Part shown: one piece after another, positions 1 through 45,900 of the stretch | Layout: each line of letters starts with the position of its first letter | How positions within the stretch are numbered: the first letter of the stretch is position 1 | From: Candidatus Woesearchaeota archaeon | GTDB taxonomy: Archaea; Nanobdellota; Nanobdellia; Woesearchaeales; WJKR01 | Length of the DNA stretch: 64,000 nucleotides | Direction: 5' to 3' | NCBI GenBank assembly: GCA_016927245.1 | Contig: JAFGNA010000011.1 | Location: 29,330 to 93,329 of the forward strand | Notes under the pieces: generated by a model | What the model was told of the DNA's origin: nothing | Database searches by the model: none | Seen by the model: the letters and a program-made list of their open reading frames with translations, nothing else | Translations under genes and position numbers: made by a program

Positions 1-3000
1 GGCAGGATTTGTGGAGAATTTCTCGTCGTCGATGCTAGTGAATGATTCGTCCTCGTTGCAGGAGTAGAATGCGTTGTCATAGAAGAGGATGTGCGGCCAG
101 TGGGCAGTGGAGTGGAACGCTCGCGAGACGGGCATGTCGTCGCCGACGGCCCTGCCCGCCCAGCACGCGGCCACGTTGTCGATGTAGAACTCTGCCTGGT
201 CATAGGAGGTGCTCTTGGTGTCCGCGCCGCAGCAATAAGTGCCGGTCCACGTCGTGGTGAACTGCTCTTCGCAGGCGTGGGCGTACGGCACCACTTCTTC
301 TGCGGATGCTTCTTCAGGATTGGGGGGCTCGAGTCCGCGCACCCAGGTGCGGTGGTCGCCGGCGCAAAACCATTCCTGCTCCTCATCTTCTTCGTGGAAG
401 ACGAAGTTGTCGGTGTAGACGGTGACATCGCCGCTTCCAGGGGTGCTCGTCCTTGCGAAGACGATGTTCGCCCCGGTGATGTCATAACGGTAGAACAGGC
501 CCTGATTCTCGATGGGGATGGTGAACTTGTTCCAGATGCCTGATGGCAAGGTGTTGATGATGGCGATGTCCTTTAGTGCGAAGGAGCCCACGTTAGTAGT
601 TGAGGAATAGAAATCGATGCTCTCCGGTCGTAGGAGGCCTGCTGGATCATCATATTTCATCTCGAAGCTGATGCTGTCGAAACGCTGCGATGCACGCGAC
701 GGGATGGTGAAGTGGAGGCTGATGGAATGGTCGCCGCTCCCGGAGACGGCGATGGTGTTTTCCCCTGTCAGCTCTCGCAGGAAGGATTGCTCGAGTAGAT
801 CGAAGCTCTCGATGGTGTAGAGGTGGTTGCCTGGGGTGAAGGTCTTGCCGTTGTCCTCGCCGAGGTAGTCTCCGTCCCAGAGGAACGCGTTCTGGCAGTT
901 CTCATTGGAGCAGCACTCACCAAAGGCGGATTCCCCGTAGATGTCCTGGTAGCACATGATCGCCTCGTTCGGTCGAGGTTCGAAGATGACCGCGTTGCCG
1001 ACGTCATAATCCAGTTTTCCCAAGCAACAGTCGGCCTCGGTCATTCCCAGGGCTTGGACCTCATAGGGCTGTCCTTCAGGGACGTCGCCTCGCAAGCACG
1101 TGAGCCCCGTCCCGGTGGTGACCATGCCGCCGAGCGCCTCGCATGTCTCTTCTTCTGGCAGCTTGCAGTGGCCGTTCAAGCAGCAACGTTCCGTGCCGCC
1201 CGAGGTGGAGACCTCTCTTCCGTCGCCGCTGAAAAAGACGCAGTGCTCTTCTTCTTCGCAGACTTCTGTGTGGGTGATGGCGGATGAGAGTTCTTGACAT
1301 GTTCTCTCCTCGAAGGATGCTGTTCCGCTGGTGGGGCCACGAGCGTCATCCTCATCGGCGAAGCCACTACCACCGCCACCATCACCGTCACTGCCGCCAG
1401 GGAGGTTCTCCTGGTCTTGTTTGCAGACCAAGCTGGAACACTCTCTACCGAAAAGCGAAGGTTTGAAGAAGGTGTAATAATCGTTCGTGACGTAAGAGAG
1501 GCCCGCGCCCGCGGAGGACGCCTCGAAACCACTCGTCGGCTCGAAGTCGTTAGGTATGCCGCCTTCGTACTCGCAGCAACCGATGAAGGAATCCTTGAGC
1601 TCTTTCTTCTCCTCATCGGTGAGGTCCGCGCCGAGCGAGTCGACATAAGTGTCATAGGCCATGCGGGGATCGTCCGTGTTCCATACAGGCATATCGCATT
1701 CGCTCGCCAGGATGTAGTTGAACCATTTCTGCTGGGTCCTATCAGAAGGGTCTGGATTGATGAGCGCGTAGTCGGTGATACCGGGGTGGCAGGAATCATC
1801 GCCGTAGAAGATGCCTGTAAGCGTTGTTGGCGGAAGTAGTTCATAATTGCTGAGGACGATGTCTTCTGATGATTCCGCTCCTCCTATCACGTCGCAGGAG
1901 AACCATTTCTCGCCGTTGGAGATGAAATCGACTTCCCCATCAGGGTGGATGGTGTACTCTTGCTCGTACGCGTCCCACCATTGCCATTGCCCGTCCTGTA
2001 TTGCGATGTGTTGTGGTTCTTGGTTGCCATCATAGTCATTCAGGCAGAGGTAGTCTTCTTCTATGTGGCCGTAATCATCTGTCCCGTCAGTAATGGGTGT
2101 CCAAGTGCAGGTGACGTCAGGGCAGGCGGCCTGGGTGATGTAAAGCGAGCATGGCGTGGTCTCGAGTTCTCCTTCGCATTCTTCTGATACAATCACCTGC
2201 ATGCTTGGGGAAGGCTCGCAGCTGTAGGAGGGGACGTACCCCATTTCATCGCTCCAGTAAGAGTCTGCGACAGCTACGCATCCGGCGTTGTGCCCTTGTT
2301 CATCGCAACCGTCAGGAATGTCTCCTGCGTATACTTCATGTTCTTGGCAGTACGCTTGGGGGTCTGCCGAGGTGACCTTCCACGAGCATTGGTCCACGGT
2401 GTCGCAGTCTTGCTGGTTAGTGATGGATGAGCAGCTGGAAACGTCGCTGGGCCTGCAGGCGAAGTTCGCATCATCGCCGCAGCAACCGTCGCTACCGTCG
2501 GTTATTTCGCCTATACTGTACCAGGGAACCGCGGTGGAGAAGCTCTGGTAGACATTAGGCCCTGCTCCCTCCACGTTGCTTGCACAGTATCGTTCCTCTT
2601 CTCCGGTCTTCCAGCCTCCAGTGGTGCAGTAGTGTGTATTGCCCGAGTCGTCAGTATAGCTGAGTATTCCTATCTCATTCTCGTCATCGCCGCAGCAATG
2701 ATAGCTCTTGTCAGGAAGGGTCATCCTTTCCGAATCATAGTATTTTCCTCCTGCGTATTCGCAGAACTTCTGGTTCTCGTCACCGTCATAGACAAGGAGA
2801 AAATCATCTTGGTTGAGGAACCTGTTATATACAGGAAACTCTGATATGCGGTTCACAGTGTCTGCATTCAGGGTCCAATGCTCATAAATGTTGACTTGCG
2901 CGTTCTCGTCGCGGGAATAGGTGTCATCCCCTTGCATCCTGACCATCATGGTCAAGAAGTAGACTCCTTCTGGAAGGGTGGAGAAGTCGTACGTGTCATC

Positions 3001-4359: not shown

Positions 4360-4512
4360 GTGGTGGTCGTGGAAGCGAGAGGACTATTTAAATCATGCTC
4401 TCGTGCCCGGAAAAACTACTGGACAGGTGGAGGGTGAGGCTTTATAACGCCGCGTGCGTTCGCACGTATTCGACCGAAAGAAATAAATAATAATTATACT
4501 TATGTATAATTC

Positions 4513-4752
4513 ATGGTGGGGAAGATAACGCTGACAGGAACCATCCTCAAATGGGGGAACTCCTACGGCATCCGCATCAACAAGGAAGAAGTGGAAAGGA
4601 TGAGACTGCAGGAGAAGCAACAAGTCGAGGTAGCCATCAAGCCCATCAAGAACCCTCTGCTCGAACTCTGGGGATCAGCAAAGGACAACCCCATAACCAA
4701 GGAGGACTTTCTCAGGATACGAAGAGAGCTAGAAGGTGAATTCGGAAAATGA
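4513..4752 (+). CDS. vapB: AbrB/MazE (SpoVT-AbrB) type antitoxin, VapB-like
   Basis: KWGNSYGIRINKEEVERMRL is a swapped-hairpin motif like MazE KRWGNSPAVRIP. 79 aa. Overlaps the downstream PIN gene by 4 nt. Confidence 0.7.
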   Translation: MVGKITLTGTILKWGNSYGIRINKEEVERMRLQEKQQVEVAIKPIKNPLLELWGSAKDNPITKEDFLRIRRELEGEFGK

Positions 4753-5111
4753 AACTGTGCCTGGACACCTATGCTCTCGTCGAGATAGAGAAGAACACAC
4801 CCACATACCGTTCCATAATAGAGGAGGAATTCATCATCACCGCAGCAGCTCTAGGAGAATTCTACTATCTCATGGCACGATTGAAAGGCGCAAGAACCGC
4901 GGAGTACTGGGCCAAGCGCCTGCTGCCATTCACCGAGGACGTTGACAAGCACCTATGGGTGGAGTCGATGCGATTCAGAGCAGAGCACTACAAGGAGAAG
5001 CTGTCGGTCATCGACGCGCTCAGCTACACCTACGCGAGGAAGCACAAGCTCTTGTTCGTCACGGGCGACGCCGCGTTCAAGGACAAGCCAGGAGTCAAGC
5101 ACATCGCCTAG
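4749..5111 (+). CDS. vapC: PIN-domain ribonuclease toxin VapC
   Basis: N-terminal LDTYALVE with conserved acidic residues and C-terminal LLFVTGDAAF are typical of PIN/VapC. 120 aa. Translationally coupled to the AbrB-type gene. Confidence 0.75.
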   Translation: MKLCLDTYALVEIEKNTPTYRSIIEEEFIITAAALGEFYYLMARLKGARTAEYWAKRLLPFTEDVDKHLWVESMRFRAEHYKEKLSVIDALSYTYARKHKLLFVTGDAAFKDKPGVKHIA

Positions 5112-5875
5112 GCGACGCCGAGCGCCTTGCGCAACCCGAAGCTGAGCGCGACGCTGAACAAGATGTAGATGCCGATCCACCCCCAGTTCCCTACTAACGG
5201 GAAGCCCTCCAGCGGCTTGATCTTCTCGTTGCTCAGCGTGACGGCGCTGAAAGGCGCCACTTTCACCTTCTCGAACGGCGGCGCGTACTGGCCAGTCTCA
5301 GAGGAGATGACGACCTCCTTGGCAGTGCTCGCCCCCGAGGCGTGCGTGAAGGCCAACTGGTACGTCCCCTCCTCACCCATCAAGGTCCACGACGCCACCC
5401 CATCAATCACTTCCTTGGTCCACGTGTCATTCCTGTGCAAGCCCAGCTCAGGAATGGTGTCCAAGGTGACCTCGCCCGCAGCCCCTTTCTGGAGCTGCAT
5501 CGTGACGGTGAACGGCTCTCCCGGCAGCAGCGGCTCGTACGCCATGTGCGCGTTCAACCAGCCGAAGATGATGATGATGGGGATGAGCGTGTACAAGGTG
5601 GGCTTGAAGCTCTGCTTCATGATCTCCATGTTCTTGCCCATCATCTCCTGCTGGACCTTCATAGCCTTCTTCGGGTCAGTCTTAGAAAGCTCCTTGACCT
5701 TCTTCTGATACCCTTTCATCTCCGCCTTCAACGCCTTCATCCGCTGCTGGTCGGTCAAGTACTTATACGCAATCGTGGTCAGTGTGGTGATGACCACGCT
5801 GATGACGAGGATGGCGAGCCAGCTCGGCAAAGCCAATAGCGGCGAGAAGACCGGGTCGAGGAAGCTCCCTACCAT
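5108..5875 (-). CDS. DUF106 / EMC3-TMCO1-like membrane protein (archaeal Oxa1/YidC-superfamily insertase homolog)
   Basis: Coiled-coil Lys-rich segment KALKAEMKGYQKKVKE..KKAMKVQQEMMGKNMEIMKQSFKPTLYTLIPIIIIFGWL matches DUF106 architecture. TM helices. Located next to secY as in many archaea. Confidence 0.55.
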   Translation of the reverse strand: MVGSFLDPVFSPLLALPSWLAILVISVVITTLTTIAYKYLTDQQRMKALKAEMKGYQKKVKELSKTDPKKAMKVQQEMMGKNMEIMKQSFKPTLYTLIPIIIIFGWLNAHMAYEPLLPGEPFTVTMQLQKGAAGEVTLDTIPELGLHRNDTWTKEVIDGVASWTLMGEEGTYQLAFTHASGASTAKEVVISSETGQYAPPFEKVKVAPFSAVTLSNEKIKPLEGFPLVGNWGWIGIYILFSVALSFGLRKALGVA

Positions 5876-5962
5876 GGAAGGACGGGAACACCAAGCCTAT
5901 TTAAAGATAGTGGAAGAATACCGGATACGCCACGACGAGGGAGCAAGGAAAGGCCTATAATA

Positions 5963-34153: not shown

Positions 34154-34656
34154 CTTGTGAGAGGAATACTCGAGGTTTTATATAGTTTTCTAAATGTTAC
34201 TATTATAAAGTAAATACAATTTTGTGAGTTATCTCCAACCCAATCATTTCCTGTAGAAATTGTGAAAGGAAGGGTGGAGGTTGGGTGTACTCGTCAATGA
34301 TTTCTTGTTTTTCAGTGCTGTGAATAAACCAAATATAAAGAATATTTTCAAAAATATATTATTATAATTATATTTTATAAAAAAATAATCTATATAGAAA
34401 TTAATTGGTGGTGGTAAGAAACCACCGTCGAGAAAAGAAATACCTACACAACACACCTCTAACCAACACAAACCCCACATCACACACCAACACTCCACAC
34501 GAATAAAAGGGGTGAGGCTTATCGTTTCCAATACAACCATCCAGAAACCACACATCCCCATACCACATAACAAGAGTGCAAAAAACTTAAAAACAACCCT
34601 CTTTTCCTTTGGAAACGTATTGTAGGGGTGCACAAGTGGTCAACAACAACCTAACG
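34154..34656. promoter_or_regulatory. oriC: Putative chromosomal replication origin (oriC) upstream of orc1/cdc6
   Basis: About 500-bp non-coding AT-rich region. ORB-like elements: TTTCCTGTAGAAA...GGGTGG (~34247-34285), CTCCACACGAATAAAAGGGGTG (~34493-34515) and TTCCTTTGGAAACgtattgtaGGGGT (~34605-34629). 80-bp >90% AT DUE (~34330-34410). Hairpin GGTGGT..ACCACC (~34408-34426). A/C-only tract (~34441-34500). Confidence 0.6.
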
Positions 34657-35850
34657 ATGTTCTTCGAGAAGTTCCTCACCAAGGAATCACTCTTCAAAGA
34701 CAAGAAAGTACTCCAATCAACCTATATCCCAGACGAAATAAACCACCGAGACGAGCAAATAAACACCATCGCACAGATACTCGCACCAGCGCTCCGCAAA
34801 GAGAAACCAAGCAACCTCTTCATCTACGGCAAGACCGGCACAGGAAAGACCCTAAGCATCCGCTACACCGCAGAGCAGATGGAACAAGTCGCCAAGCAGC
34901 AAGAAGTCCCACTCTCAGTGTTCTACCTCAACTGCAAGCTCAAGAAGATAGCAGACACCGAGTACCGCCTCATCGCCGAGCTCGCGAGATTCTTCGGGAA
35001 AGCAGTCCCCCCAACAGGCCTCCCCACAGACGAAGTCTACAACATCTTCTTTAAAGCGCTCGACAGCGAAGAACGAGTCGTCCTCCTCATCCTCGACGAG
35101 ATAGACCAACTCGTCAAGAAAGCAGGTGACGAGATAATCTACAACCTCACCCGCATCAACGCCGAGCTCAAAAGGAGCCACGTCAGCATCATCGGCATCA
35201 GCAACGACCTCATGTTCGCGAACAACATCGACCCACGAGTCAAGTCATCGCTATCAGAGGAAGAGATAGTCTTCCCCCCATACAACGCCCTCCAGATACA
35301 AGACATCCTGCACAAGCGGTCATCCCAAGCGTTCAAGGACAGCATCATCACCGAAGGCGTCATCGCCAAGTGCGCCGCCTACGCGGCGAGAGAGCACGGA
35401 GACGCGAGACGAGCTCTCGAACTCCTCCGCGTAGCAGGAGAGCTAGCAGAAAGGAAAGGAGACACCACCATCATGATAACGCATATCGACGACGCGGAGG
35501 AGAAGATAGAACGCGACCGCATCCTCGACATCGTCAAGACCCAGCCAAAACAATTCCAAGCGACGCTCTACCCCATCCTGATGACCCACCAGAAGAAGAA
35601 AGGGCTCGTCTACACAGGAGAGATATACGACGTCTACAAGGACCTCTGCGAGAAGATAGGGCTACGGCCCCTCACCCAAAGGAGGATCAGCGACATCGTC
35701 GCAGAGCTCGACATGCTCGGCATCATCAACGCCAAAGTCATCAGCAAGGGACGATTCGGCAGGACGCGCGAGATAGCGCTCGCCATCCCCTCACAAGTAG
35801 AGCCGAAGATAAGGAAGATACTCGAGGAAGACCTCGGGGTCGCAGCATGA
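34657..35850 (+). CDS. orc1: Orc1/Cdc6 replication initiator
   Basis: AAA+ Walker A GKTGTGKT, Walker B LILDEID, sensor and a C-terminal winged helix. ATG at 34657; the track TTG start at 34609 lies inside the ORB. Confidence 0.9.
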   Translation: MFFEKFLTKESLFKDKKVLQSTYIPDEINHRDEQINTIAQILAPALRKEKPSNLFIYGKTGTGKTLSIRYTAEQMEQVAKQQEVPLSVFYLNCKLKKIADTEYRLIAELARFFGKAVPPTGLPTDEVYNIFFKALDSEERVVLLILDEIDQLVKKAGDEIIYNLTRINAELKRSHVSIIGISNDLMFANNIDPRVKSSLSEEEIVFPPYNALQIQDILHKRSSQAFKDSIITEGVIAKCAAYAAREHGDARRALELLRVAGELAERKGDTTIMITHIDDAEEKIERDRILDIVKTQPKQFQATLYPILMTHQKKKGLVYTGEIYDVYKDLCEKIGLRPLTQRRISDIVAELDMLGIINAKVISKGRFGRTREIALAIPSQVEPKIRKILEEDLGVAA

Positions 35851-37390: not shown

Positions 37391-40300
37391 TGGCCAAGGA
37401 TGGCATGGCGTGCAGCCCCGCCATCAAGGCGTACTTCGACGATATCGAACGCAAGACGAAGAAAGCCTTCGAGGCGGCCACGGAGGCACGCCAACAAGGA
37501 TACGACCCTGAACGATTCGTAGAGGTCAAGCTCGCCAAGAACATGGCTGAACGAGTAGTAGGCATCATCAGCGTCGCGGCCCCGCAGATCATCGGCAGCG
37601 GCGTGACCGAGCGCATCATCGAGCTCGAGAAGGAGTACGGCCTCCAGGACTGGCGAGTCGCGTTCGTCATCGCGCTCGAGATAGCGCGGCAACGACACTG
37701 CTCCTTCAAGGACGAGCTCGAGGCGATAGAGGTAGGCGTCAGGACAGGGTTCGCGTACGTCACGGTGGGCGTGGTCTCCTCCCCGCTAGAAGGGCTGACG
37801 AGCATCGACATCAAGCGTCGCAGGGACGGCCGAGGAAGCTATTTCTGCCTGAACTACGCAGGCCCCATCAGGAACGCTGGGGGGACCGCCGCCGCAGTCT
37901 CAGTCCTCATCGCTGACTACGTTCGCAAGCACCTAGGCTACGCAAAGTACGACCCTGATGAGAAAGAGGTGCAGCGCTGCTACGCCGAGCTCGAGGACTA
38001 CCACCAATACGTCGCCAACCTGCAATACTACCCGTTCAAGGAGGAGTCCGAGTTCCTCATGCGGCACATCCCCGTAGAGATAGCCGGCGACCCGTCTGAG
38101 AAGCGAGAGGTGTCCAACGTCGGCGTCAAGGACCTCCCGCGCGTGCAGACCAACCACCTCCGCAGCGGCTACTGCCTCATCCACTCATCATGCATCCCGC
38201 TCAAGGCTCCCAAGCTATGGAAGCAGATCTCCAAGTGGAAGGAAGAGATGGGCATGGAGGACTGGGAATTCCTCGAAGAGCACATCAAGCTGCAGAAGGA
38301 GCTCAAGGCGAAGCAGGCAGAGCAGACAGCCCAGCACCAAGAGAGCGACGCGAAGATCAAGCCTGACGGCACCTTCGTCGCAGACCTCGTCGGCGGCCGA
38401 CCAGTACTCGGACACCCGATGAGGAGCGGCGGCTTCCGCCTCCGGTACGGCAGGAGCAGGGCTTCCGGCTACTCAGGACAAGCGACACACCCGGCAACCC
38501 TCGCCATCCTGAACGGGCTCATCGCCACGGGCACCCAGCTCAAAGTGGAACGGCCAGGGAAAGCCGCGGCGTTCACCACGTGCGACACCCTCATGGGGCC
38601 CATCGTCAAACTCGATGACGGCAGCGTGGTGTCGTTGCGGGACGAGGCGACCGCTCGTGAACTCTCCCCGCGCGTCAAGGAGATACTCTACCTCGGCGAC
38701 GCCCTCATCAACTATGGCGATTTCTTCGACCGCGCCCACGTCCTCGTCCCCCCAGGCTACGTCGAGGAGTTCTGGGCGCTCGAGGCCGAGGAGTCGTTGC
38801 GAGAGCACGGCGATGAGCCAGACGCGCGGCTACGGGAAGCGATCAATAACCCGCTCTCCACCAAGGTGTCTTTCTCAGAGGCAAAGTCATGGTCCTCTTC
38901 TTACGGCTTGCCGTTGCACCCCTCGCACCTGTTCTTTTACGCCGAGGTCGACAAGGAGCAGTTGCTCGCCCTCGCGTCCTGGCTTGGCAAGGCGTCGTTC
39001 ATGCTCGGAGGCTCCCCCAGCGTATCGCTCCCGCTCCCTCACCCTGGGAAGCGCACGCTCGAGCTGCTCGGCGTGCCGCACCGCGTCGAGGATGGCCTCG
39101 CAGTCGTGTCCGGCGACGACGCCCTCGCGCTCACGGCCACGTTGCGGGTGAGGAGTAAGGAGGAGGCGTCATCGCTCGAGTCGTTCGTCAAGGACGCGGA
39201 GGGCTCAGCGCTCAGCATCGTGCAGGAGCGAGCATCGTTCATCATCAAGGACAAGTCAGGATTGTTCATAGGGGCGCGCATGGGACGGCCGGAGAAGGCG
39301 AAGATGCGTAAGATGACAGGCAGCCCGCACACGTTGTTCCCCGTCGGCGCTGAGGGCGGCCGGCTCCGCAGCTTCCAGTCAGCGTTGGAGAAGGGGCTCG
39401 TCACCGCGGAGTTCCCCGTGTTCCTCTGCCCTGAGTGCGGTCATCGCTCCCCTTTCTCTGTGTGCGACAAGTGCGGCGCTCTCGGCGTTCGCCAGAAGGT
39501 TCATCCGCGAACTGAGGATCTCGTGCCGCCCGGGGCTGCTGAGGAATCAGGGATCGAGTTCCTTGACTTCAAGCGGTGGGGCGTGCCTATCAGGGACCTC
39601 TTCGACTATTGCTTGCGGCGCATGGGCACGAAGGTGTACCCTGACTTGGTCAAGGGCGTTCGCGGCACGGTAGGCAAGGACCACACCCCCGAGCACCTCC
39701 TCAAAGGCATCTTGCGGGCGAAGCACGACGTCTACGTGAACAAGGACGGCACGGTGCGGTACGACGCGTCAGAGGTCGCCCTGACGCACTTCAAACCGAA
39801 AGAGGTCGGGACGCCTGTCGCTCGTCTGCGAGAGCTCGGCTACACCAAGGATAATAAGGGGGAGGAGTTGCGGCGCGATGACCAGGTGCTTGAGCTCCGC
39901 GCCCAGGACGTCGTCCTGCCCGCCTGCCCTGACAGCCCTGATGAGGGGTCTGACAAGGTGCTCGTGAGCATAGCGAAGTTCCTGGACGAGCTGCTCGTCA
40001 CGTTGTACGGGCTCCCGCCGTTCTATAATGTCTCTTCTCGCGATGACCTCGTCGGCCACATCGTCGTGGGGTTGGCGCCGCACACCAGCGCAGGGGTGGT
40101 GGGGCGTATCATCGGCTTCAGCAAGACGCAAGGGTTCTTCGCGCACCCGTTGTACCACGCCGCTATGCGACGGGATTGCGATGGTGACGAGTCGTGCTTC
40201 TTCCTCCTCATGGACGCGTTCATGAACTTCTCCCGCCGCTTCATGTCAACGTCTCGCGGTAGCACCATGGACGCTCCTTTGGTGTTGACTACCTTGCTCA

Positions 40301-40932
40301 ACCCGGCAGAGGTGGATGACATGGCGTTCAAAATGGACATCGCTGATCATTACCCGCTCGAGTTCTACCGTGCGTGCCAGGAGTACAAGATGCCGTGGGA
40401 TGTTTCTGTCAGGAAGATCGGCGACGTCCTCTTCACCCCCGCGCAGTTCGAGGGTATGCGCTTCACGCACGGCACTGATGACATCAACGCAGGGGTGTTG
40501 TGCAGCGCGTACAAGCTCTTGCCGTCCATGGGGGAGAAGATTGCCGCTCAGATGGACTTGGCGGAGAAGCTGCGCGCGGTGGACACCGCTGATGTCGCTC
40601 GCTTGGTCATCGAGAAGCACTTCATCAGGGATACCAAGGGCAATCTGCGCAAGTTCTCATTGCAGCAGTTCCGGTGCGTGCAGTGCAACGAGAAGTTCAG
40701 GCGTCCTCCTCTGAACGGCCGGTGCTCCTCGTGCGGCGGCAAGGTCATCTTCACGATTTCTGAAGGATCAGTCACCAAGTACTTGGAGCCGTCGTTATTG
40801 CTCGCGGAGAAGTACGACCTGGACGCGTATTTGCGGCAGACGCTGGAGCTGACCAGGGTGCGTGTCGAGTCGTACTTCGGCAAGGAGAAGGAGAAGCAGA
40901 CAGGGTTAGCGGGCTGGCTGGGCGGCGGGTGA
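37390..40932 (+). CDS. dp2: DNA polymerase II (PolD) large subunit DP2
   Basis: 1180 aa. Conserved DP2 regions including Zn-binding CPECG..CDKCG and the catalytic region. No intein (canonical length). Confidence 0.9.
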   Translation: MAKDGMACSPAIKAYFDDIERKTKKAFEAATEARQQGYDPERFVEVKLAKNMAERVVGIISVAAPQIIGSGVTERIIELEKEYGLQDWRVAFVIALEIARQRHCSFKDELEAIEVGVRTGFAYVTVGVVSSPLEGLTSIDIKRRRDGRGSYFCLNYAGPIRNAGGTAAAVSVLIADYVRKHLGYAKYDPDEKEVQRCYAELEDYHQYVANLQYYPFKEESEFLMRHIPVEIAGDPSEKREVSNVGVKDLPRVQTNHLRSGYCLIHSSCIPLKAPKLWKQISKWKEEMGMEDWEFLEEHIKLQKELKAKQAEQTAQHQESDAKIKPDGTFVADLVGGRPVLGHPMRSGGFRLRYGRSRASGYSGQATHPATLAILNGLIATGTQLKVERPGKAAAFTTCDTLMGPIVKLDDGSVVSLRDEATARELSPRVKEILYLGDALINYGDFFDRAHVLVPPGYVEEFWALEAEESLREHGDEPDARLREAINNPLSTKVSFSEAKSWSSSYGLPLHPSHLFFYAEVDKEQLLALASWLGKASFMLGGSPSVSLPLPHPGKRTLELLGVPHRVEDGLAVVSGDDALALTATLRVRSKEEASSLESFVKDAEGSALSIVQERASFIIKDKSGLFIGARMGRPEKAKMRKMTGSPHTLFPVGAEGGRLRSFQSALEKGLVTAEFPVFLCPECGHRSPFSVCDKCGALGVRQKVHPRTEDLVPPGAAEESGIEFLDFKRWGVPIRDLFDYCLRRMGTKVYPDLVKGVRGTVGKDHTPEHLLKGILRAKHDVYVNKDGTVRYDASEVALTHFKPKEVGTPVARLRELGYTKDNKGEELRRDDQVLELRAQDVVLPACPDSPDEGSDKVLVSIAKFLDELLVTLYGLPPFYNVSSRDDLVGHIVVGLAPHTSAGVVGRIIGFSKTQGFFAHPLYHAAMRRDCDGDESCFFLLMDAFMNFSRRFMSTSRGSTMDAPLVLTTLLNPAEVDDMAFKMDIADHYPLEFYRACQEYKMPWDVSVRKIGDVLFTPAQFEGMRFTHGTDDINAGVLCSAYKLLPSMGEKIAAQMDLAEKLRAVDTADVARLVIEKHFIRDTKGNLRKFSLQQFRCVQCNEKFRRPPLNGRCSSCGGKVIFTISEGSVTKYLEPSLLLAEKYDLDAYLRQTLELTRVRVESYFGKEKEKQTGLAGWLGGG

Positions 40933-40984
40933 TCTGGAGGGTTTTTCTTTCTGGGTATGATTACTGTTAACACTCGAGCTTGGT

Positions 40985-41120
40985 CGATTTTCGTAGAAAA
41001 TCAGACGGAGCTGCAAGCGAAGTGACCAAGGTCGTGTTTAGCTCTTCCGAAGCCGCAGGCTGAGAGGACGCAGTCCGTGGGTCGAGGAGAACTTTTGTTC
41101 GACGACGAAGTCACTGTTCC
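40985..41120. repeat. Non-coding repeat element, copy A of a ~150-nt family
   Basis: ttcgtagaaaatcagacggagctgcaagcgaag...cgtgggtcgaggagaacttttgttcgacgacgaag is about 70-75% similar to copies at 41893-42045 and 42048-42090. Confidence 0.4.
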
Positions 41121-41213
41121 TATAACAAAAAAGAGAGAGTTGCCGCCGCTCATTCGTACCTTTTTAAACCAAAAACCAGAAGGTTTTTATAGTTATACAA
41201 ACTTATATACCTT

Positions 41214-41492
41214 ATGCCGCAAGCACTAGCAAAAAAAGAAATTCTACATTATCCTCGATTAGACACTGTTCTAATGGTTGAGGAGCTCATCAAAGAACAC
41301 TCAGGCGAGTACAAAAAAAAGGCACTTTGGGAGTCACTTCCAAAAGGAATGATGTATCAAACATTCTGTGTGGTCTTTGATTACTTGCTAGATTCAGGAA
41401 AAATCGCTCTAGATAAAGAAGGACACATCGCATGGATCTGGAATCCAGAACTCGTAAAAAAATACTTGTCAAAACCAGAACTTTGGGTGTGA
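41214..41492 (+). CDS. Putative antitoxin partner (92 aa, possible winged-helix)
   Basis: Small ORF ending 4 nt before the RelE-like gene start. Low GC. No recognisable RelB/Phd motif. Confidence 0.3.
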   Translation: MPQALAKKEILHYPRLDTVLMVEELIKEHSGEYKKKALWESLPKGMMYQTFCVVFDYLLDSGKIALDKEGHIAWIWNPELVKKYLSKPELWV

Positions 41493-41495
41493 ACC

Positions 41496-41825
41496 ATGGA
41501 GTCAAAGGTAACATTTGGAGATATAAAGCTCAAAGAAGCATATACTAAATTGAAGACTTCAAAAACTGAAGATCAAATGCTTTACAAATGGATAACAAGA
41601 GCAATAGATGATCTAAAAGTAAATGCCTTTTGTGGAACGCAAGTTCCAAAGAGAGTCATCCCAAAAATCTACACTGAGAAATACGAGACGGACAATCTTT
41701 GGAAATATGACTTGCCAAAAGGATGGAGACTCATCTACACTATAGCAAATGGCGAAGTACTTATCATTTCAATAATTCTAGAATGGATGACTCACAAAGA
41801 CTACGAAAAAAGATTCAAATACTAA
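41496..41825 (+). CDS. relE: RelE/ParE-family toxin (mRNA interferase)
   Basis: C-terminal KGWRLIYTIANGEVLIISIILEWMTHKDYEKRF matches the archaeal aRelE pattern (GDYRVIYSV....V.IL.L.PRG) and overall fold pattern. Confidence 0.5.
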   Translation: MESKVTFGDIKLKEAYTKLKTSKTEDQMLYKWITRAIDDLKVNAFCGTQVPKRVIPKIYTEKYETDNLWKYDLPKGWRLIYTIANGEVLIISIILEWMTHKDYEKRFKY

Positions 41826-41892
41826 AAAAGGCGGCAACTCTCTCAAAAACAATAAATAACAGTGATTGAGCTATACATCGGGCTTAAGGAGA

Positions 41893-42095
41893 GTTTCGAC
41901 TGAAAGGAGAAATTCGGGCGGAGTCTGCAAGACGAAGCTCTTTAAGCCCTGTTAAGTCGCCCCGAGCAATTTATTGCGAGAGCCTGCAAGGCGTGGGTCG
42001 GAGTAAAACTTGTTTTACGTAGAAGTAAAATTTGAGCTCTTAATATTCATTCGACTGAAGGGAGTCAAAATGTGCGGAGCACTAGTGGAAGCTTA
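41893..42095. repeat. Non-coding repeat element, copies B1 (full) and B2 (partial) in tandem; possible small structured RNA
   Basis: TTCGACTGAA(A/G)GGAG..GCGGAG repeated about 155 nt apart. B1 contains ggagtctgcaagacgaag and gagcctgcaaggcgtgggtcggag, matching copy A. About 45% GC. Confidence 0.4.
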
Positions 42096-42650
42096 TTAAA
42101 ATAATGAATCCTTAAAATAATCTTTGTAGTATATTGATCTTGAATTGCTAATTAATTTGTCATTATTATAATTAATTATTTCTAATGCTAGTTCTACATC
42201 ATAAAAATTTCTTTCAAAATATATTTCATTATTCTTGCTCCTATCATCAAAATATCCTAACCGTATTTGTTTTTGTTTTTCAATATCCTTTTCTCCTTTG
42301 AAAAGTTTAACTTGTATTTTTTGTTCAAGTGTTATTGGACTATAGAAACCTTCAAATACTAATTTTTTAATAGGTACTGTTTTTTTCGCAGGTACAACAT
42401 CTAAAATATATTTAGTTATCATACCACATTGAATATTTTGGACTGTAATCATATCTCCATAGATATCATCAAAACGTTTACCATCTTGTCCAATTGTTTC
42501 CCCATTATGATCTAGTGAGACTATCTTGATTGATTGGTGAACTATTTGAGATTCTGTAAGTATGTGTGCTATTTTAAATTCTTCAGTAACTATTAAATCT
42601 GAAATGCTTTTGTAAACTCGTTTCTTTGAATCCATATTATTGGAATTCAA
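42096..42650 (-). CDS. Hypothetical protein, about 30% GC, apparently foreign origin
   Basis: 184 aa. Strongly AT-biased codons unlike host genes. No recognisable motifs. Confidence 0.4.
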   Translation of the reverse strand: MNSNNMDSKKRVYKSISDLIVTEEFKIAHILTESQIVHQSIKIVSLDHNGETIGQDGKRFDDIYGDMITVQNIQCGMITKYILDVVPAKKTVPIKKLVFEGFYSPITLEQKIQVKLFKGEKDIEKQKQIRLGYFDDRSKNNEIYFERNFYDVELALEIINYNNDKLISNSRSIYYKDYFKDSLF

Positions 42651-42848
42651 TTTATCTATAAAAAGTTTTCCGCAGCTTTCACTTTTTGTTTCTTTTTTTT
42701 AAAAAGAAAGAGAGCTCAAATTTTATTCGACTTAACACGTATTTAGCGACCTTTTGGGAGCATAAAACGTGTTATGATTGCCGCGTAGCGGATGCTTTCC
42801 GGCTTCTTAGCTGTCATCGTTTTGAATTACTCTCTTTTTTGTTCCTTC

Positions 42849-43658
42849 ATGGATTATATGGCTCGTTTGCAGGAGGAGTGTGATCTTCGTGGTTTTAGCC
42901 GTCAGACTAAGAAGACTTATGCGTGTGTCGTCTCTTCTTTCCTCTGTTTTGTTGAGAAAAGAGGTTTAACCCTTGACAAGGTGGGTGTTAAGTCGTATTT
43001 GCTCTCCTTGCAGGTCTCTGCTAACGCCGCTCGCCTCTATCACGCCGCGCTCAAGTTCTTCTTCGCCAGCGTCCTCGATGACCCTTTCTCTGACGTGGAA
43101 GTCCCTAAGAAGCGGAAGCCTAAGATCCTTCCCAAGGTCCTCTCTAAGGAGCAGATCAAGAAAATCATTGATTCCACGGAGAACCTCAAGCATCGCCTTG
43201 TCATCAAGCTCCTCTACTCGTCTGGTTTGCGCCTCCAAGAACTCATCAATCTCAAAAGGGCGCATGTCGACTTCGACAGGGGTCTTATCAACGTCGTCCA
43301 AGGCAAGGGCAAGAAGGATCGGGTCACCCTCCTCTCAAATGAACTCCGGTTGGACCTCCTCAAATACTACAGCTTAACAACTTTCCAGACGCCGTACGTG
43401 TTCGAAGGACGAAAAGGCAAGTACAGCAAGAAGTCCGTGCAGAAGGTCTTGGAGAAAGCGGGGAAAGCCATCGATGCAGAGCTCACCCCGCACATGCTCC
43501 GCCATTCCTTCGCCACGCACCTCTTGGAGGCTGGCGTCGACATCCGTTTCATACAGAAACTTTTAGGTCACGCTGATGTGAAGACGACCGAGGTCTACGC
43601 GTACGTCTCCAATCAGTCGCTCGCCGCTATCGAGAACCCGTTGGATCGCTTGGCTTAG
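42849..43658 (+). CDS. Tyrosine recombinase/integrase (XerA/XerC/D-like)
   Basis: C-terminal catalytic HMLRHSFATHLLEAGVDIRFIQKLLGHADVKTTEVYAYV (H..R, H, Y) and N-terminal SAM-like domain. About 50% GC with T-ending codons (gat, cgt, ctt, ttt) unlike host C-ending usage. Likely start at 42849. Confidence 0.8.
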   Translation: MDYMARLQEECDLRGFSRQTKKTYACVVSSFLCFVEKRGLTLDKVGVKSYLLSLQVSANAARLYHAALKFFFASVLDDPFSDVEVPKKRKPKILPKVLSKEQIKKIIDSTENLKHRLVIKLLYSSGLRLQELINLKRAHVDFDRGLINVVQGKGKKDRVTLLSNELRLDLLKYYSLTTFQTPYVFEGRKGKYSKKSVQKVLEKAGKAIDAELTPHMLRHSFATHLLEAGVDIRFIQKLLGHADVKTTEVYAYVSNQSLAAIENPLDRLA

Positions 43659-44068
43659 ATCTTGCTCGTGAACGTGTAGCGGGCGCCGCACGCTTGGCAT
43701 TTGAAGTAGTAGATGTCGCCTTCTTTTGACAGTTTCGTGTCGGGCTTGTGGCATTCCCTGCAGATGACGAACTCGTCCGCGTAGCTTTGCAGCTTCTCGT
43801 TGATCTTGCTGGCGGGGATCTTGCTGCCGAAGATGATGAGTTGGTTGACTTGTTCTGCGGTGGTGGCGAGCTCTCGGGAGAGGTATTTGAGGAGGTGCTT
43901 TATGGGTCTGTGCAGGGCGTCCGCTATCTGGTGCAGGTTGCTGATGATGGTCTTGGTGCCTTGCTGGTGGCCTTTGACTTTGGGCAGTTGGAACCGTTCT
44001 TCAGCGTGGTTGATCTCGGGCAGGGCTTCTTTTGCCTGTTTGAGGAGTTGGTGGTAATCGGGAGGCAT
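43655..44068 (-). CDS. eif2b: Translation initiation factor aIF2 beta subunit
   Basis: C-terminal zinc ribbon CRECHKPDT...KCQACGA and N-terminal helix region typical of aIF2-beta. Confidence 0.85.
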   Translation of the reverse strand: MPPDYHQLLKQAKEALPEINHAEERFQLPKVKGHQQGTKTIISNLHQIADALHRPIKHLLKYLSRELATTAEQVNQLIIFGSKIPASKINEKLQSYADEFVICRECHKPDTKLSKEGDIYYFKCQACGARYTFTSKI

Positions 44069-44149
44069 GCGTGCTGAGAACCAGCGGTGTTTTATAAAGC
44101 TGTTGGGTCCTCTAGTTTTTTAAAGGGAAGGTGTTTTCTCGGTGTCCGC

Positions 44150-44223
44150 GGGCTCTTAGCTCAGCCTGGTAGAGCGCAACGTTCGCAACGTTGAGGCCGC
44201 GGGTTCGAATCCCGCAGAGTCCA
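44150..44223 (+). tRNA. tRNA-Ala: tRNA-Ala (anticodon CGC), no encoded CCA
   Basis: Cloverleaf derived by hand. Acceptor GGGCUCU/AGAGUCC with G3:U70 Ala identity pair. D-arm GCUC-AGCCUGGUA-GAGC. Anticodon stem CAACG/CGUUG, loop UUCGCAA. T-arm GCGGG-UUCGAAU-CCCGC. Discriminator A. Upstream TATA TTTTTTAAA at about -30. Confidence 0.85.
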
Positions 44224-44262
44224 TCGCTTCTCTTTTTTGGTTTTGTTCTTGGGGTTTTTTCT
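44224..44262 (+). terminator. T-rich terminator tract downstream of tRNA-Ala
   Basis: tcgcttctcttttttggttttgttcttggggttttttctc. Archaeal terminators are oligo-T runs. Confidence 0.5.
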
Positions 44263-44596
44263 CGTCGGGTTGTTTGGTGGTCAATGATTTTGTTTCACTA
44301 TAGTATTTACTATATTGCAAATAAATAATTTGAATTAATTTCATTAAGGAAAATTATTCTCTCGTACTCACAACCTATAAATACGAGTTATGCAACCAAG
44401 ATCAATGATGGACAGCAGGCACGCTTGGATGACGTACGTCATTGTCCGAGACTGCGTGCTGTTCGCCAAGCGATCCGCGTGCTAGGGCAACACCAAGAAC
44501 CGGTGGTGCACGAGCGCGCGGACAACAAGGTTCTCCGAAGCTCTGCACCGCCAGCGACGGCGCTGTCCCGCACACGGACCGCATGAAGCAACAGCC

Positions 44597-45004
44597 ATGG
44601 AGGTGGTGAAATTGTACAGCTGTGTGGAATGCGGGGAGGTCATCACCAACCCCATCAGCGAGCAGCGCCTCGCCCTCGAGTTCAGGGCGTGGCTGGCAGA
44701 GATGGACGGCGCTTTGGAAGAGCGGTTCTCCGAAGAGTACGTCTCGCGCGCCGACTTCATCGACGAAGAATGCGTCGGCCAGGAGTGCATCCTGACCAAG
44801 CGGAAGATGGATGTCTGCCCGTATTGCGTCGCCGCACAGCTCATCGACTGGCTGCACAGCGCCACGTTCGACCCGGTCGTCCTGGATGCAGCCCTGGATT
44901 TCTTCGTCGCCCGCCAGGATGAGCCGTACGTCCTGCAGCGGTTGCGGGCGAAAGGATGTGGCGTGAGGATCATGCTGACGCGAACCCAGCGGCTCATGGC
45001 ATGA
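44597..45004 (+). CDS. Hypothetical CxxC...CxxC zinc-ribbon protein
   Basis: YSCVECGEV...DVCPYCVAAQ. GC3-rich host-like codons. The overlapping 297-aa minus-strand ORF (44402-45295) is judged antisense noise. Confidence 0.45.
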   Translation: MEVVKLYSCVECGEVITNPISEQRLALEFRAWLAEMDGALEERFSEEYVSRADFIDEECVGQECILTKRKMDVCPYCVAAQLIDWLHSATFDPVVLDAALDFFVARQDEPYVLQRLRAKGCGVRIMLTRTQRLMA

Positions 45005-45050
45005 CTGTTTTTCCTTTTTTTTCCATCTGCATTCGGTTCTTTTCCAGGCA

Positions 45051-45102
45051 TCCCCTCCACAGCGCCTCTCCCCCGCAAATCTCCACAGGAAATGAAAGGG
45101 TG
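45051..45102. promoter_or_regulatory. ORB-like element(s) between the Zn-ribbon gene and tbp
   Basis: CTCCACAGGAAATGAAAGGGTG (~45081-45102) closely matches the oriC element CTCCACACGAATAAAAGGGGTG. A second CTCCACAG half lies at ~45054. An AT-rich stretch follows. Confidence 0.4.
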
Positions 45103-45239
45103 AAAAAACTATACTGTTGTATTTTTTACCAGATATTTTTAAACTTCGCTCGACGAGAAGCGCCCAACTAGTCTTTTCCATGAGAAACGGAGGGGGTTCC
45201 GCCTCCGCAACACACATTTCCTCATATCTAGTTTGATTT

Positions 45240-45342
45240 AAAAAAAGATTTATAAAGGGGAAGTGTTTTCCCCTTAAAAGAGACCCGCAGTTCATCTGGT
45301 GTGGGGGATGAAACCAAGAAGGTCTTCCGAAGGTGATACCCT
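45240..45342 (+). promoter_or_regulatory. tbp promoter: TATA TTTATAAA preceded by an A-rich BRE region, with downstream palindrome GGGGAAgtgtTTTCCCC
   Basis: aaaaaaagatttataaaggggaagtgttttcccc lies about 60-95 nt upstream of the tbp ATG. Confidence 0.5.
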
Positions 45343-45900
45343 ATGGCAGCAACCAAGGAACCCAAACCGCAAGACATCCAAGTGGTAAACATCGTCGTCT
45401 CCACCAGCCTAGGACACGACATCCCCTTGGAGAAGATGGCAGCCACCCTGTCCAACACTGAGTACAACCCAGAACAATTCCCAGGACTGGTCATCAGGAT
45501 AAAAGACCCCAAGACCTCCGCCCTAGTCTTCAGCAGCGGCAACGTCGTGTGCACCGGTGCGCGCAGCATTCCCAAAGTAGAAGAGAGCATCCAGAAGATC
45601 ATCGAATCCCTGGAGAAGATCGGCATCACCATCACCATCAAGCCGAAAATCAACATCCAGAACATCGTCGCCTCAGGCAACATCGGCACAGACCTCAACC
45701 TGAACACCCTGGCGATGAAGCTGGACAACACGGAATACGAGCCGGAACAATTCCCAGGACTCGTCCTCAAGCTGAAAGAAGCAAAAGCGACGTTCCTGCT
45801 CTTCAGCAACGGCAAGGTCGTGTGCACCGGTACCAAATCGGAAGCCATGGTACACGAGGCACTGGACAAGCTGGTGGAAAAGCTTAAGACCGTGATGTGA
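45343..45900 (+). CDS. tbp: TATA-box binding protein
   Basis: Two TBP repeats: QNIVASGNIGTDLNL, EYEPEQFPGLVLKL, KVVCTGTKS. 185 aa. Downstream hairpin plus T-run terminator at about 45903-45935. Confidence 0.95.
   Translation: MAATKEPKPQDIQVVNIVVSTSLGHDIPLEKMAATLSNTEYNPEQFPGLVIRIKDPKTSALVFSSGNVVCTGARSIPKVEESIQKIIESLEKIGITITIKPKINIQNIVASGNIGTDLNLNTLAMKLDNTEYEPEQFPGLVLKLKEAKATFLLFSNGKVVCTGTKSEAMVHEALDKLVEKLKTVM

Follow-up and report, generated by a model that had tools for sequence, protein, structure and literature searches.

What is the low-GC span between the genes polD-large and aIF2-beta of a woesearchaeal contig, and does the tyrosine recombinase gene beside it belong to it? The archaeal stretch examined here, 64 kb at ~57% G + C (GC) and called the window throughout, was described in an initial annotation as carrying at this place a single 2.7-kb foreign island with its own integrase. 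We consider it probable that positions 40972-42736 are instead an array of two cassettes, one with a toxin-antitoxin (TA) unit and one with the open reading frame (ORF) ORF184, standing at an attachment site upstream of a Xer-family recombinase gene (xerA), i.e. an integron-like platform (Table I).

The low GC content and the insertion itself are both real, as the initial annotation had proposed. In 200-nt windows GC drops from 56-67% in polD to 21-45% over 41100-42800; the antitoxin, toxin and ORF184 genes have 39, 34 and 26% GC and third-position GC (GC3) of 0.36, 0.35 and 0.16, and GC3 is 0.76-0.84 in the host genes for PolD, aIF2-beta, TBP and MCM. The closest relative, metagenome-assembled genome Bin_423 (GCA_014729015.1, contig L005), is colinear with the window over 36.4-52.2 kb and shares the order polD-small, polD-large, aIF2-beta, tRNA-Ala, TBP, MCM, and in it the stop codons of polD-large and aIF2-beta are only 143 bp apart, with no counterpart of 40954-43630. 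The sole tRNA gene in the window, tRNA-Ala(CGC) at 44150-44223, lies 492 bp past the recombinase stop codon and beyond aIF2-beta, in agreement with the earlier statements that no tRNA stands at the border and that the element is not tRNA-targeting. The tyrosine recombinase reported next to the span is likewise there, and the 64-kb window holds no second one.

The absence of the whole of 40954-43630, recombinase included, from the colinear Bin_423 locus is what a single foreign island would leave, and in each of three lineages the recombinase gene has a lower GC content than the neighbouring core gene. The comparison of these lineages nevertheless speaks against a joint arrival. A recombinase 84% identical to that of the window is found on a contig binned with Bin_423 (L002), where it adjoins a prenyltransferase gene, and an equally similar one (84%) in a third lineage (L102) converges on aIF2-beta as in the window, with a different low-GC ORF, the ORF157 cassette, upstream. 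DNA identity among the three lineages is 74-77% for xerA and 78-82% for aIF2-beta (the aIF2-beta proteins of the window and Bin_423 are 78% identical), and because the two genes have diverged to a similar degree we regard xerA as a resident gene of the clade, variable in position and not a recent arrival. The binning of L002 is uncertain because its GC content is 48.6% vs 56% for L005, and this xerA contig may be mis-binned in GCA_014729015.1. Across the DPANN homologues listed the family is ~59-65% identical, and in the other lineages examined the downstream neighbours of the gene are constant within a lineage (core genes, e.g. PolB in the lineage with recombinase P0051), only the upstream side being variable. 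The "foreign codon usage" first ascribed to the recombinase gene is weak: at 51.7% GC its GC3 of 0.67-0.69 is low yet inside the host range, values of 0.65-0.70 occurring in other long ORFs of the window. Nor do direct repeats, proposed as a check of the island borders, flank the 2.7 kb as a whole, and its low-GC part is made of two units with separate sites and matched ends of their own. We thus regard a single island with its own integrase as improbable. The counter-possibility named in the initial annotation, a universally syntenic chromosomal XerA, agrees with the XerA-like enzyme and conflicts with its varying chromosomal position.

At the 3' side of the gene, the recombinase and aIF2-beta stop codons, on opposite strands, overlap by 4 nt (43655-43658) without a spacer; in L102, 8 nt separate these genes.

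The limits of the two units are sharp. Locus L101 carries an ORF184 cassette (87% identical protein) beside a different cassette, and its homology with the window starts right after ATA(A)CAT (box 41865-41876) and stops right after TTAACAC. The homology upstream of xerA shared by the window, L002 and L102 starts at this box too (TTAACAC/ATAACAC). The motif ATT-N6-(T/A)AAC^ (the caret marks the crossover) stands at all 14 boundaries examined, one of them deviating in the first box (ATC); one boundary box of the window ends in TAC, not AAC, and the cassettes of L105 have AAT or GAAC at their ends. The boundaries within the window come after 40971, 41876 and 42736, so that the att sites, at first called unclear, can be placed at the three boxes given in Table I.

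The two ends of each cassette, 0.5-2.2 kb apart, are matched to each other. The right end of cassette 1, GAGCTATACA, agrees with the reverse complement of its own R' (TGTTA) box, TGTTTAGCTC, at 9 of 10 positions, vs 5 for the neighbouring end, and the right end of cassette 2, CGACTTAACA, is complementary to its own R' box, TGTTAAGTCG, at 10 of 10, vs 5 for the neighbour. Over nine cassettes the far end scores 9, 10, 9, 10, 10, 10, 8, 10 and 9 of 10 against its own R' decamer, and the end currently adjoining the R' box scores 5-7. Two cassettes of the P0089 lineage give 10/10 and 10/10 for their own ends vs 5-7 for the adjacent ones, and two of L105 give 10/10 and 9/10 when read by hand (the scripted register was off by one). 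Altogether 13 cassettes from six lineages were compared, 11 by script and two by hand.

Within these ends, an inverted repeat peculiar to the cassette brackets the payload in 7/7 cassettes examined for it. It measures 15 nt in the TA cassette, 29 nt in the ORF184 cassette, 13 nt each in the restriction-modification and tRNA-synthetase cassettes of other arrays, 9-10 nt in the ORF168 cassette, 13 in an ORF-less cassette and ~7 in the L102 ORF157 cassette. The earlier description of a TA cassette bounded by terminal inverted repeats thus holds as regards a perfect 15-nt repeat, and fails as regards a repeat of transposon type. A transposon or miniature inverted-repeat transposable element was rejected, as each cassette has inverted repeats of its own, which are not found again in the window and lack a flanking duplication; homologous TA units elsewhere are also without them. 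The idea of an inversion or insertion that would have divided the reverse complement of site 41124-41147 was dropped too: the shared bases are promoter-proximal leader motifs and cassette-specific repeats.

Because each cassette's two ends match, the simplest account of the sequences is that each cassette passes through a circular form, with the crossover at AAC, and that the circle would carry one composite folded site. Circle junctions rebuilt on this assumption and folded with DNA parameters have minimum free energies of -44.7 (ORF184) and -52.5 (TA) kcal/mol, with z-scores of -9.4 and -7.6; in both folds the inverted repeat and the R box are paired and the three-way junction is present. 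In the circle of cassette 1 the left repeat arm would make up half of the stem that closes the composite att site. The predicted circle junctions are TTCGACTTAAC^ATCGGGCTTAAGG and TGAGCTATAC^ACTCGAGCTTGG, and the predicted empty site is ATTACTGTTAAC^ACGTATTTAGCG; the ORF184 circle junction would read ...AAATTTTATTCGACTTAAC^ATCGGGCTTAAGGAGAG..., that of the TA cassette ...GTGATTGAGCTATAC^ACTCGAGCTTGGTCG..., and the empty site of the window ...GGTATGATTACTGTTAAC^ACGTATTTAGCGACC....

Empty and occupied sites are both found within one other lineage. The identical recombinase protein P0051 occurs on 20 contigs, from which the context of 10 places was obtained, and in all 10 xerA is followed by PolB. 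On the empty contigs (L110, L114) the next gene upstream, at a distance of 115 bp from xerA, is of tRNA-synthetase type; on L109, L111, L113 and L115 a segment of 2247 bp that encodes RE_MjaI and an N4/N6 methyltransferase separates ...CTACTAAC from ACCTATTAAG.... The insertion point is exactly ...CTACTAAC^ACCTATT..., and the segment starts with a folded element and ends ...GCGTTGAAC. As in integrons, the insertion is thus at an attI-like site by the recombinase gene, with a crossover that, to judge from these junctions, would fall at the AAC/GTT triplet (TAAC^ACC). Three more P0051 contigs break ~200 bp upstream of xerA, as expected if the site is heterogeneous. The tRNA-synthetase-type gene of L110 is itself a cassette with matched ends. 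In the P0036 and P0089 lineages the downstream genes are again constant, and the upstream sides vary or are truncated and carry elements.

Several details of these arrays stand on their own. The L110 cassette (4500-5910) couples the class-I tRNA-synthetase-type gene (Pfam tRNA-synt_1b), an unexpected mobile cargo, to a folded element, ends matching 10/10 and a 13-nt inverted repeat, AATTGCCCGCCGC / GCGGCGGGCAATT. From L112 position 1647 and L109 position 3850 onward the restriction-modification payload is 100% identical; left of 1647, where the left inverted-repeat arm has its inner edge, the att element and the left flank of L112 are different ones, a pattern that points to exchange at the edge of the repeat or to a chimeric assembly. 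A 430-bp cassette in L105 (638-1067) combines matched ends and a folded element with an inverted repeat of 13 nt (TTTTCCAACTGCC / GGCAGTTGGAAAA) and contains no convincing ORF. Its neighbour has TAAT/ATTA in place of TAAC/GTTA, so the core triplet co-varies too. The proximal sites of L110 (5911-5960) and L105 (1068-1115) have a GAAA-loop hairpin in common, GTCTACTT/AAGTAGAT vs GCCTACTT/AAGTAGGC; this compensatory change indicates that the P0051/P0036 proximal site is conserved in structure, and it is unlike the hairpin of the window.

Each cassette begins with a folded element. The initial annotation counted three copies of a ~150-nt element in the window, and two of them are true copies: A (40972-~41125) and B (41877-~42040). 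The supposed third, 42651-42848, consists of a leader and the recombinase-proximal site and has only the 29-nt inverted repeat and the AAC box in common with B. Elements A and B align with each other, with a copy in L101 beside the sole ORF184 homologue and with a copy in L021 upstream of a 42%-identical recombinase, and further copies lie in the P0051, P0036 and P0089 arrays. The consensus of nine copies from five lineages (alignment A6) has an outer stem TAACA/TGTTA, a 2-nt bulge, an 11-bp helix and a three-way junction with two hairpins. Changes on both sides, i.e. compensatory, occur in 22/30 pairs, and 91.8% of the cells are paired vs 68.6% in shuffled alignments, none of 500 shuffles reaching any of five measures; versions shifted by 1-3 columns are 30-51% paired. 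TAACA...TGTTA closes a palindrome of 87-152 nt, ~90 nt in the window sites, and 3' of TGTTA the copies share a CCCGA motif and further hairpins, of which one has GAGAG...CGTGG at its centre. The full RYYYAAC/GTTRRRY consensus is present only in some copies, e.g. ACTTAAC / GTTAAGT. These are attC-type palindromes with AAC/GTT boxes in which structure is conserved over sequence, as in integrons. Because G-U cells outnumber A-C cells (13 vs 3, one pair being G-U in 8/9 copies), folding of the + strand, which carries the xerA coding sequence, is favoured, a weak hint from the alignment that this strand may fold the better. Folded alone as RNA, A and B are unremarkable (z -0.75 to -1.2), and the signal appeared only with comparative data and reconstruction of the circle junctions. 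The proximal site of the window is conserved in DNA upstream of xerA in L002 and L102, starts exactly at the AAC box, shows two compensatory changes and folds with a z-score of ~-3.

Could these ~150-200-nt elements be structured regulatory or antisense RNAs, with the cassettes moving by other means and only an indirect link to xerA? The strong covariation, the conserved G-U pair, the GNRA-like loops (GCAA, GAAA) and the location of all copies on one strand would suit an RNA. An Rfam scan of 40000-45500 with E up to 1 returned just the tRNA-Ala and one chance miRNA match, and thus no family for the elements, and the genes of the payloads may be on the strand of the element or on the opposite one, which gives no consistent untranslated region. 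Moreover, an RNA would leave unexplained why the distant ends of a cassette are complementary when the adjacent ones are not, and why the insertion breakpoints fall exactly at the AAC box. We judge this explanation very improbable.

The elements accompany xerA. A strict TAACAY...TGTTA pattern scan missed most copies and was replaced by nhmmer and a covariance model, R1, built without helix P3. In the 64-kb window R1 finds site A (40960-41046, 60.6 bits, E 2.7e-11) and site B (41865-41961, 86.3 bits, E 1.2e-17) and no other copy. All matches with E <=0.01 are on the xerA strand, upstream of xerA where the contig has xerA, so that the cassettes keep a constant position and orientation next to the gene; they come from the window, L101, L021, P0036, P0051 and P0089 lineages. 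The near-palindromic proximal site of P0089 gives a weak opposite-strand score (E 0.097). No copies were found by R1 in the aIF2-beta loci or in three representative loci with TA homologues, nor by nhmmer in the TA-homologue loci. The relatives that a recombinase search of metagenomes brought up, all of them 33-47% identical, served as the negative set: over 80 of their loci R1 gave one strong match, L021, the closest of the 80 (42% identical), whose copy had helped to build R1, and one further marginal match. Of two pattern scans of viral collections, the first gave three chance-like 17-mer matches without covariance-model support and the second none.

The recombinase is, by its sequence, a member of a conserved Xer-type family of DPANN archaea. 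It scores 219.3 bits against the NCBIfam equivalog XerA_Arch (NF040815; cut-off 220) and 192 bits against the integron integrase model TIGR02249 (cut-off 265). The best solved relative is Pyrococcus abyssi XerA (4a8e, E 7e-48), with which it shares aligned catalytic motifs and the two-domain size class of ~270-290 aa; second, ahead of Thermoplasma XerA, is Vibrio IntI4 (VchIntIA, 2a3v, E 2e-37). The alignment to IntI4 splits, query residues 172-194 facing IntI4 179-248, so that the ~47-residue IntI-specific insert is absent. Scoring of 8000 candidate sequences with the recombinase gave at least 7610 matches at E <=1e-10. The best 120 beyond close relatives are ~59-65% identical, most without a source name; those named are mainly Woesearchaeota, Pacearchaeota and Nanoarchaeota, with stray Diapherotrites, Patescibacteria and Thermotogota labels. 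An exact-protein look-up returned no match for the 269-aa recombinase or for aIF2-beta.

A XerA-like enzyme raises another explanation, in which recombinase-free elements of the integrative mobile element exploiting Xer (IMEX) type hijack XerA at a chromosomal dif site that here lies beside xerA, with CTX phage as the closest parallel. Such elements, which include the CTX and TLC phages of Vibrio, use the host XerCD at dif, form tandem arrays and, in the case of CTX, recombine as a folded single strand that mimics dif. The XerA-like enzyme, the lack of a recombinase in the cassettes, the tandem arrays at one site and the folded-strand substrate would all be shared with them. The array is 6-8 kb from the predicted origin (see below) and not at the terminus, a position that neither supports nor excludes this explanation. 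Read by eye, the sequence around the crossover in the window and in the P0051 lineage contains no 11-6-11 dif-type palindrome. In addition, the N6 of ATT-N6-AAC differs among cassettes and co-varies with the R' box, and recognition would for this reason be structure-specific rather than directed at a dif sequence. In Thermococcales dif, a 28-bp palindrome of 11-6-11 form, lies away from xerA in the region of termination (Cortez et al. 2010, PMC2958812), and here the site, hairpin-like, abuts the gene near the predicted origin and bears cassettes, none of which is described for dif. The present cassettes also differ from IMEX in their size of 0.4-2.2 kb, in not being phages, in the lack of an evident dif-like duplex core and in their cassette-specific att stems. 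Taken together, we think a hijacked dif site unlikely.

The integron-like platform that we favour would work as follows. On the + strand a cassette consists, in this order, of the folded site at the crossover (TAACA/TGTTA), a hairpin linker, the left repeat arm, the payload (which may face either way and has a promoter of its own), the right arm and ATT-N6-AAC. In the free circle the two ends would join into one folded att site of ~190-230 nt, and the recombinase encoded next to the array, as the putative catalyst, would exchange strands at AAC between this composite site, with the folded + strand as its likely substrate, and the gene-proximal site, thereby inserting or excising the cassette.

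The resemblance to integrons extends from the arrangement (a recombinase gene, directly upstream of it an insertion site, and small cassettes arrayed away from the gene) to imperfect palindromes with AAC and GTT triplets, here TAACA...TGTTA, whose structure is conserved over sequence, to a crossover at AAC/GTT with the outer box partly donated by the neighbouring cassette and to the cargo of toxin-antitoxin, restriction-modification and unknown ORFs. The differences lie in the recombinase, which is without the ~47-residue IntI insert and scores at the XerA threshold, in sites that combine a three-way junction, a hairpin linker and a cassette-specific inverted repeat into a composite of ~190-230 nt, in a 2-nt bulge in place of the R/L bubble, where the archaeal attC sequences compared (PMC9668308) have a 5-nt spacer after TAAC, and in cassettes with their own TATA-like promoters in either orientation. 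We describe the platform as working like an integron and do not file it as one, because the IntI-specific domain is missing, the cassettes are not promoterless and the sites are larger composites.

The pdif modules of Acinetobacter plasmids are small, often carry toxin-antitoxin genes and lie between inverted XerC/D sites, and the inverted repeats that bracket small modules, often toxin-antitoxin, together with the Xer link recall the present cassettes. A pdif module was nevertheless rejected: here the repeats are unique to each cassette and share no Xer-binding consensus, and the conserved AAC recombination box is outside them.

A number of points weigh against the platform as proposed. The recombinase is tied to the cassettes by its position only. 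It lacks, around patch III, the additional IntI-specific domain that integron integrases need for folded attC, and with a score at the XerA threshold it may simply be a chromosome-dimer resolvase. In L002, xerA has the proximal site and no cassette. Unlike most integron cassettes, which are promoterless and oriented one way for expression from a common Pc promoter, these have their own promoters and both orientations. An RNA, too, would be consistent with the GNRA-like loops of the conserved linker hairpins and with the conserved G-U pair. The evidence is comparative throughout, and the comparison sequences are all metagenome assemblies.

The payloads themselves are varied, comprising across the arrays toxin-antitoxin, restriction-modification, a tRNA-synthetase-type gene, a transporter and a cyclodipeptide synthase. 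The initial assignment of a toxin-antitoxin pair in the window is supported in part. The Pfam matches of the toxin are below threshold (YoeB, E 6e-4, 20.2 bits, cut-off 27; ParE, E 9e-4, 20.2 bits, cut-off 23) and no meaningful match was found among solved structures; in its favour, some of its 363 homologues, those named being from DPANN archaea, are annotated Txe/YoeB or carry PF06769, and in every contig inspected an antitoxin-type gene of 92-93 aa (115 aa in two contigs) lies directly upstream of the toxin homologue. Homology to other TA loci is limited to 41180-41825, i.e. the unit and its TATA-like box, which is 69-77% identical to units in other DPANN contigs; because those units are without the flanking repeats and elements, the TA is a captured unit. 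Just upstream of its closest homologue, in L119 (~2430-2590, minus strand), is a sequence resembling a tRNA 3'-half, GGATTCGAACCC..., which may belong to a split or intron-containing tRNA.

ORF184, for which NCBI places the start at ATG 42635 (179 aa), is as orphan as first reported: it has a single homologue, 87% identical, among 5.8 billion proteins and no Pfam, NCBIfam, PHROG or PADLOC match, PHROG and PADLOC returning nothing for any of the three payload proteins. In both the TA unit and ORF184, which are on opposite strands, a TTTTTATAG TATA-like box precedes the start codon by ~25 nt; other-strand payloads are, in addition, those of TrpRS type and with RE_MjaI.

Table I. Coordinates, in the window, of the two cassettes, their sites and the adjoining recombinase gene (the caret marks the crossover)
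Feature	Position	Strand	Remarks
Distal array end, box ATTACTGTTAAC	40960..40971	+	28 nt past polD-large stop; crossover after C40971
Cassette 1, toxin-antitoxin, 905 bp	40972..41876	+	AAC boxes at both ends
Folded site A, three-way-junction palindrome ending in R' box TGTTTAGCTC (41035-41044)	40972..41044	+	
Cassette 1 inverted repeat, left arm GAGAGAGTTGCCGCC	41133..41147	+	Perfect 15 nt with 41830-41844
Putative antitoxin, 92 aa; TATA-like box 41182-41192	41214..41492	+	Weak helix-turn-helix-like match
Putative YoeB/ParE-like toxin, 109 aa	41496..41825	+	Sub-threshold Pfam matches
Cassette 1 inverted repeat, right arm	41830..41844	+	
Cassette 1 right-end box ATTGAGCTATAC^, also junction with cassette 2	41865..41876	+	
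Cassette 2, ORF184 cassette, 860 bp	41877..42736	+	
Folded site B, three-way-junction palindrome and R' box TGTTAAGTCG (41950-41959)	41877..41959	+	
Conserved linker with further conserved hairpins, 3' of site B	41960..42011	+	
Cassette 2 inverted repeat, left arm	42012..42040	+	29 nt, 86% complementary to 42711-42738, perfect 15-nt core
ORF184, ORFan payload, 26% GC	42096..42650	-	TATA-like box 42651-42665, minus strand
Cassette 2 inverted repeat, right arm; holds right-end box ATTCGACTTAAC^ (42725-42736)	42711..42738	+	
Recombinase-proximal site (attI-like) and xerA leader; hairpin ACGTATTTAG...CATAAAACGTGTTA 42737-42778	42737..42848	+	
Xer-family tyrosine recombinase, 269 aa	42849..43658	+	NCBIfam, PDB matches

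Outside the array, the intergenic stretch 34154-34656 has 25-45% GC, a switch of both GC and AT skew and AT-rich palindromes, and it lies directly 5' of an Orc1/Cdc6 gene (34657-35850), which is followed by polD-small and polD-large. It is likely to be a replication origin, ~6.5 kb (6-8 kb) from the cassette array, and with an origin there lagging-strand synthesis would have the + strand of the array as its template. Two further AT-rich intergenic stretches lie on the other side of the array: 44224-44401, downstream of tRNA-Ala, with a 48-nt imperfect palindrome at 44283-44330, and 45005-45342, upstream of TBP, of which 45062-45310 is conserved with L005 at the translated level.

In full-text literature searches, for which subscription journals were mostly out of reach, no account of Xer-linked cassette arrays from DPANN archaea came up. 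We tentatively suggest, as a possibility somewhat short of probable, that the locus belongs to a system of cassette capture widespread in DPANN archaea, in which a Xer-type recombinase without the IntI domain acts on large folded att sites at a place next to its own gene, a sister or precursor of integrons. Archaeal integrons have been described, along with clusters of attC without IntI (CALINs) in Woesearchaeales and Pacearchaeales (Ghaly et al. 2022, PMC9668308), and a Xer-type recombinase could be the missing enzyme of these clusters.

In the integron paradigm it is the IntI-specific domain that enables recombination of folded cassette sites. If the proposal is true, a plain Xer-type enzyme suffices, and the IntI domain would not be required for an integron-like platform. 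The proposed descent of integron integrases from Xer recombinases would then become testable, and a recombinase of 269 aa with defined structured sites could serve as a tool. For the DPANN archaea, with their small genomes, such a platform would provide a concrete route of gene gain.

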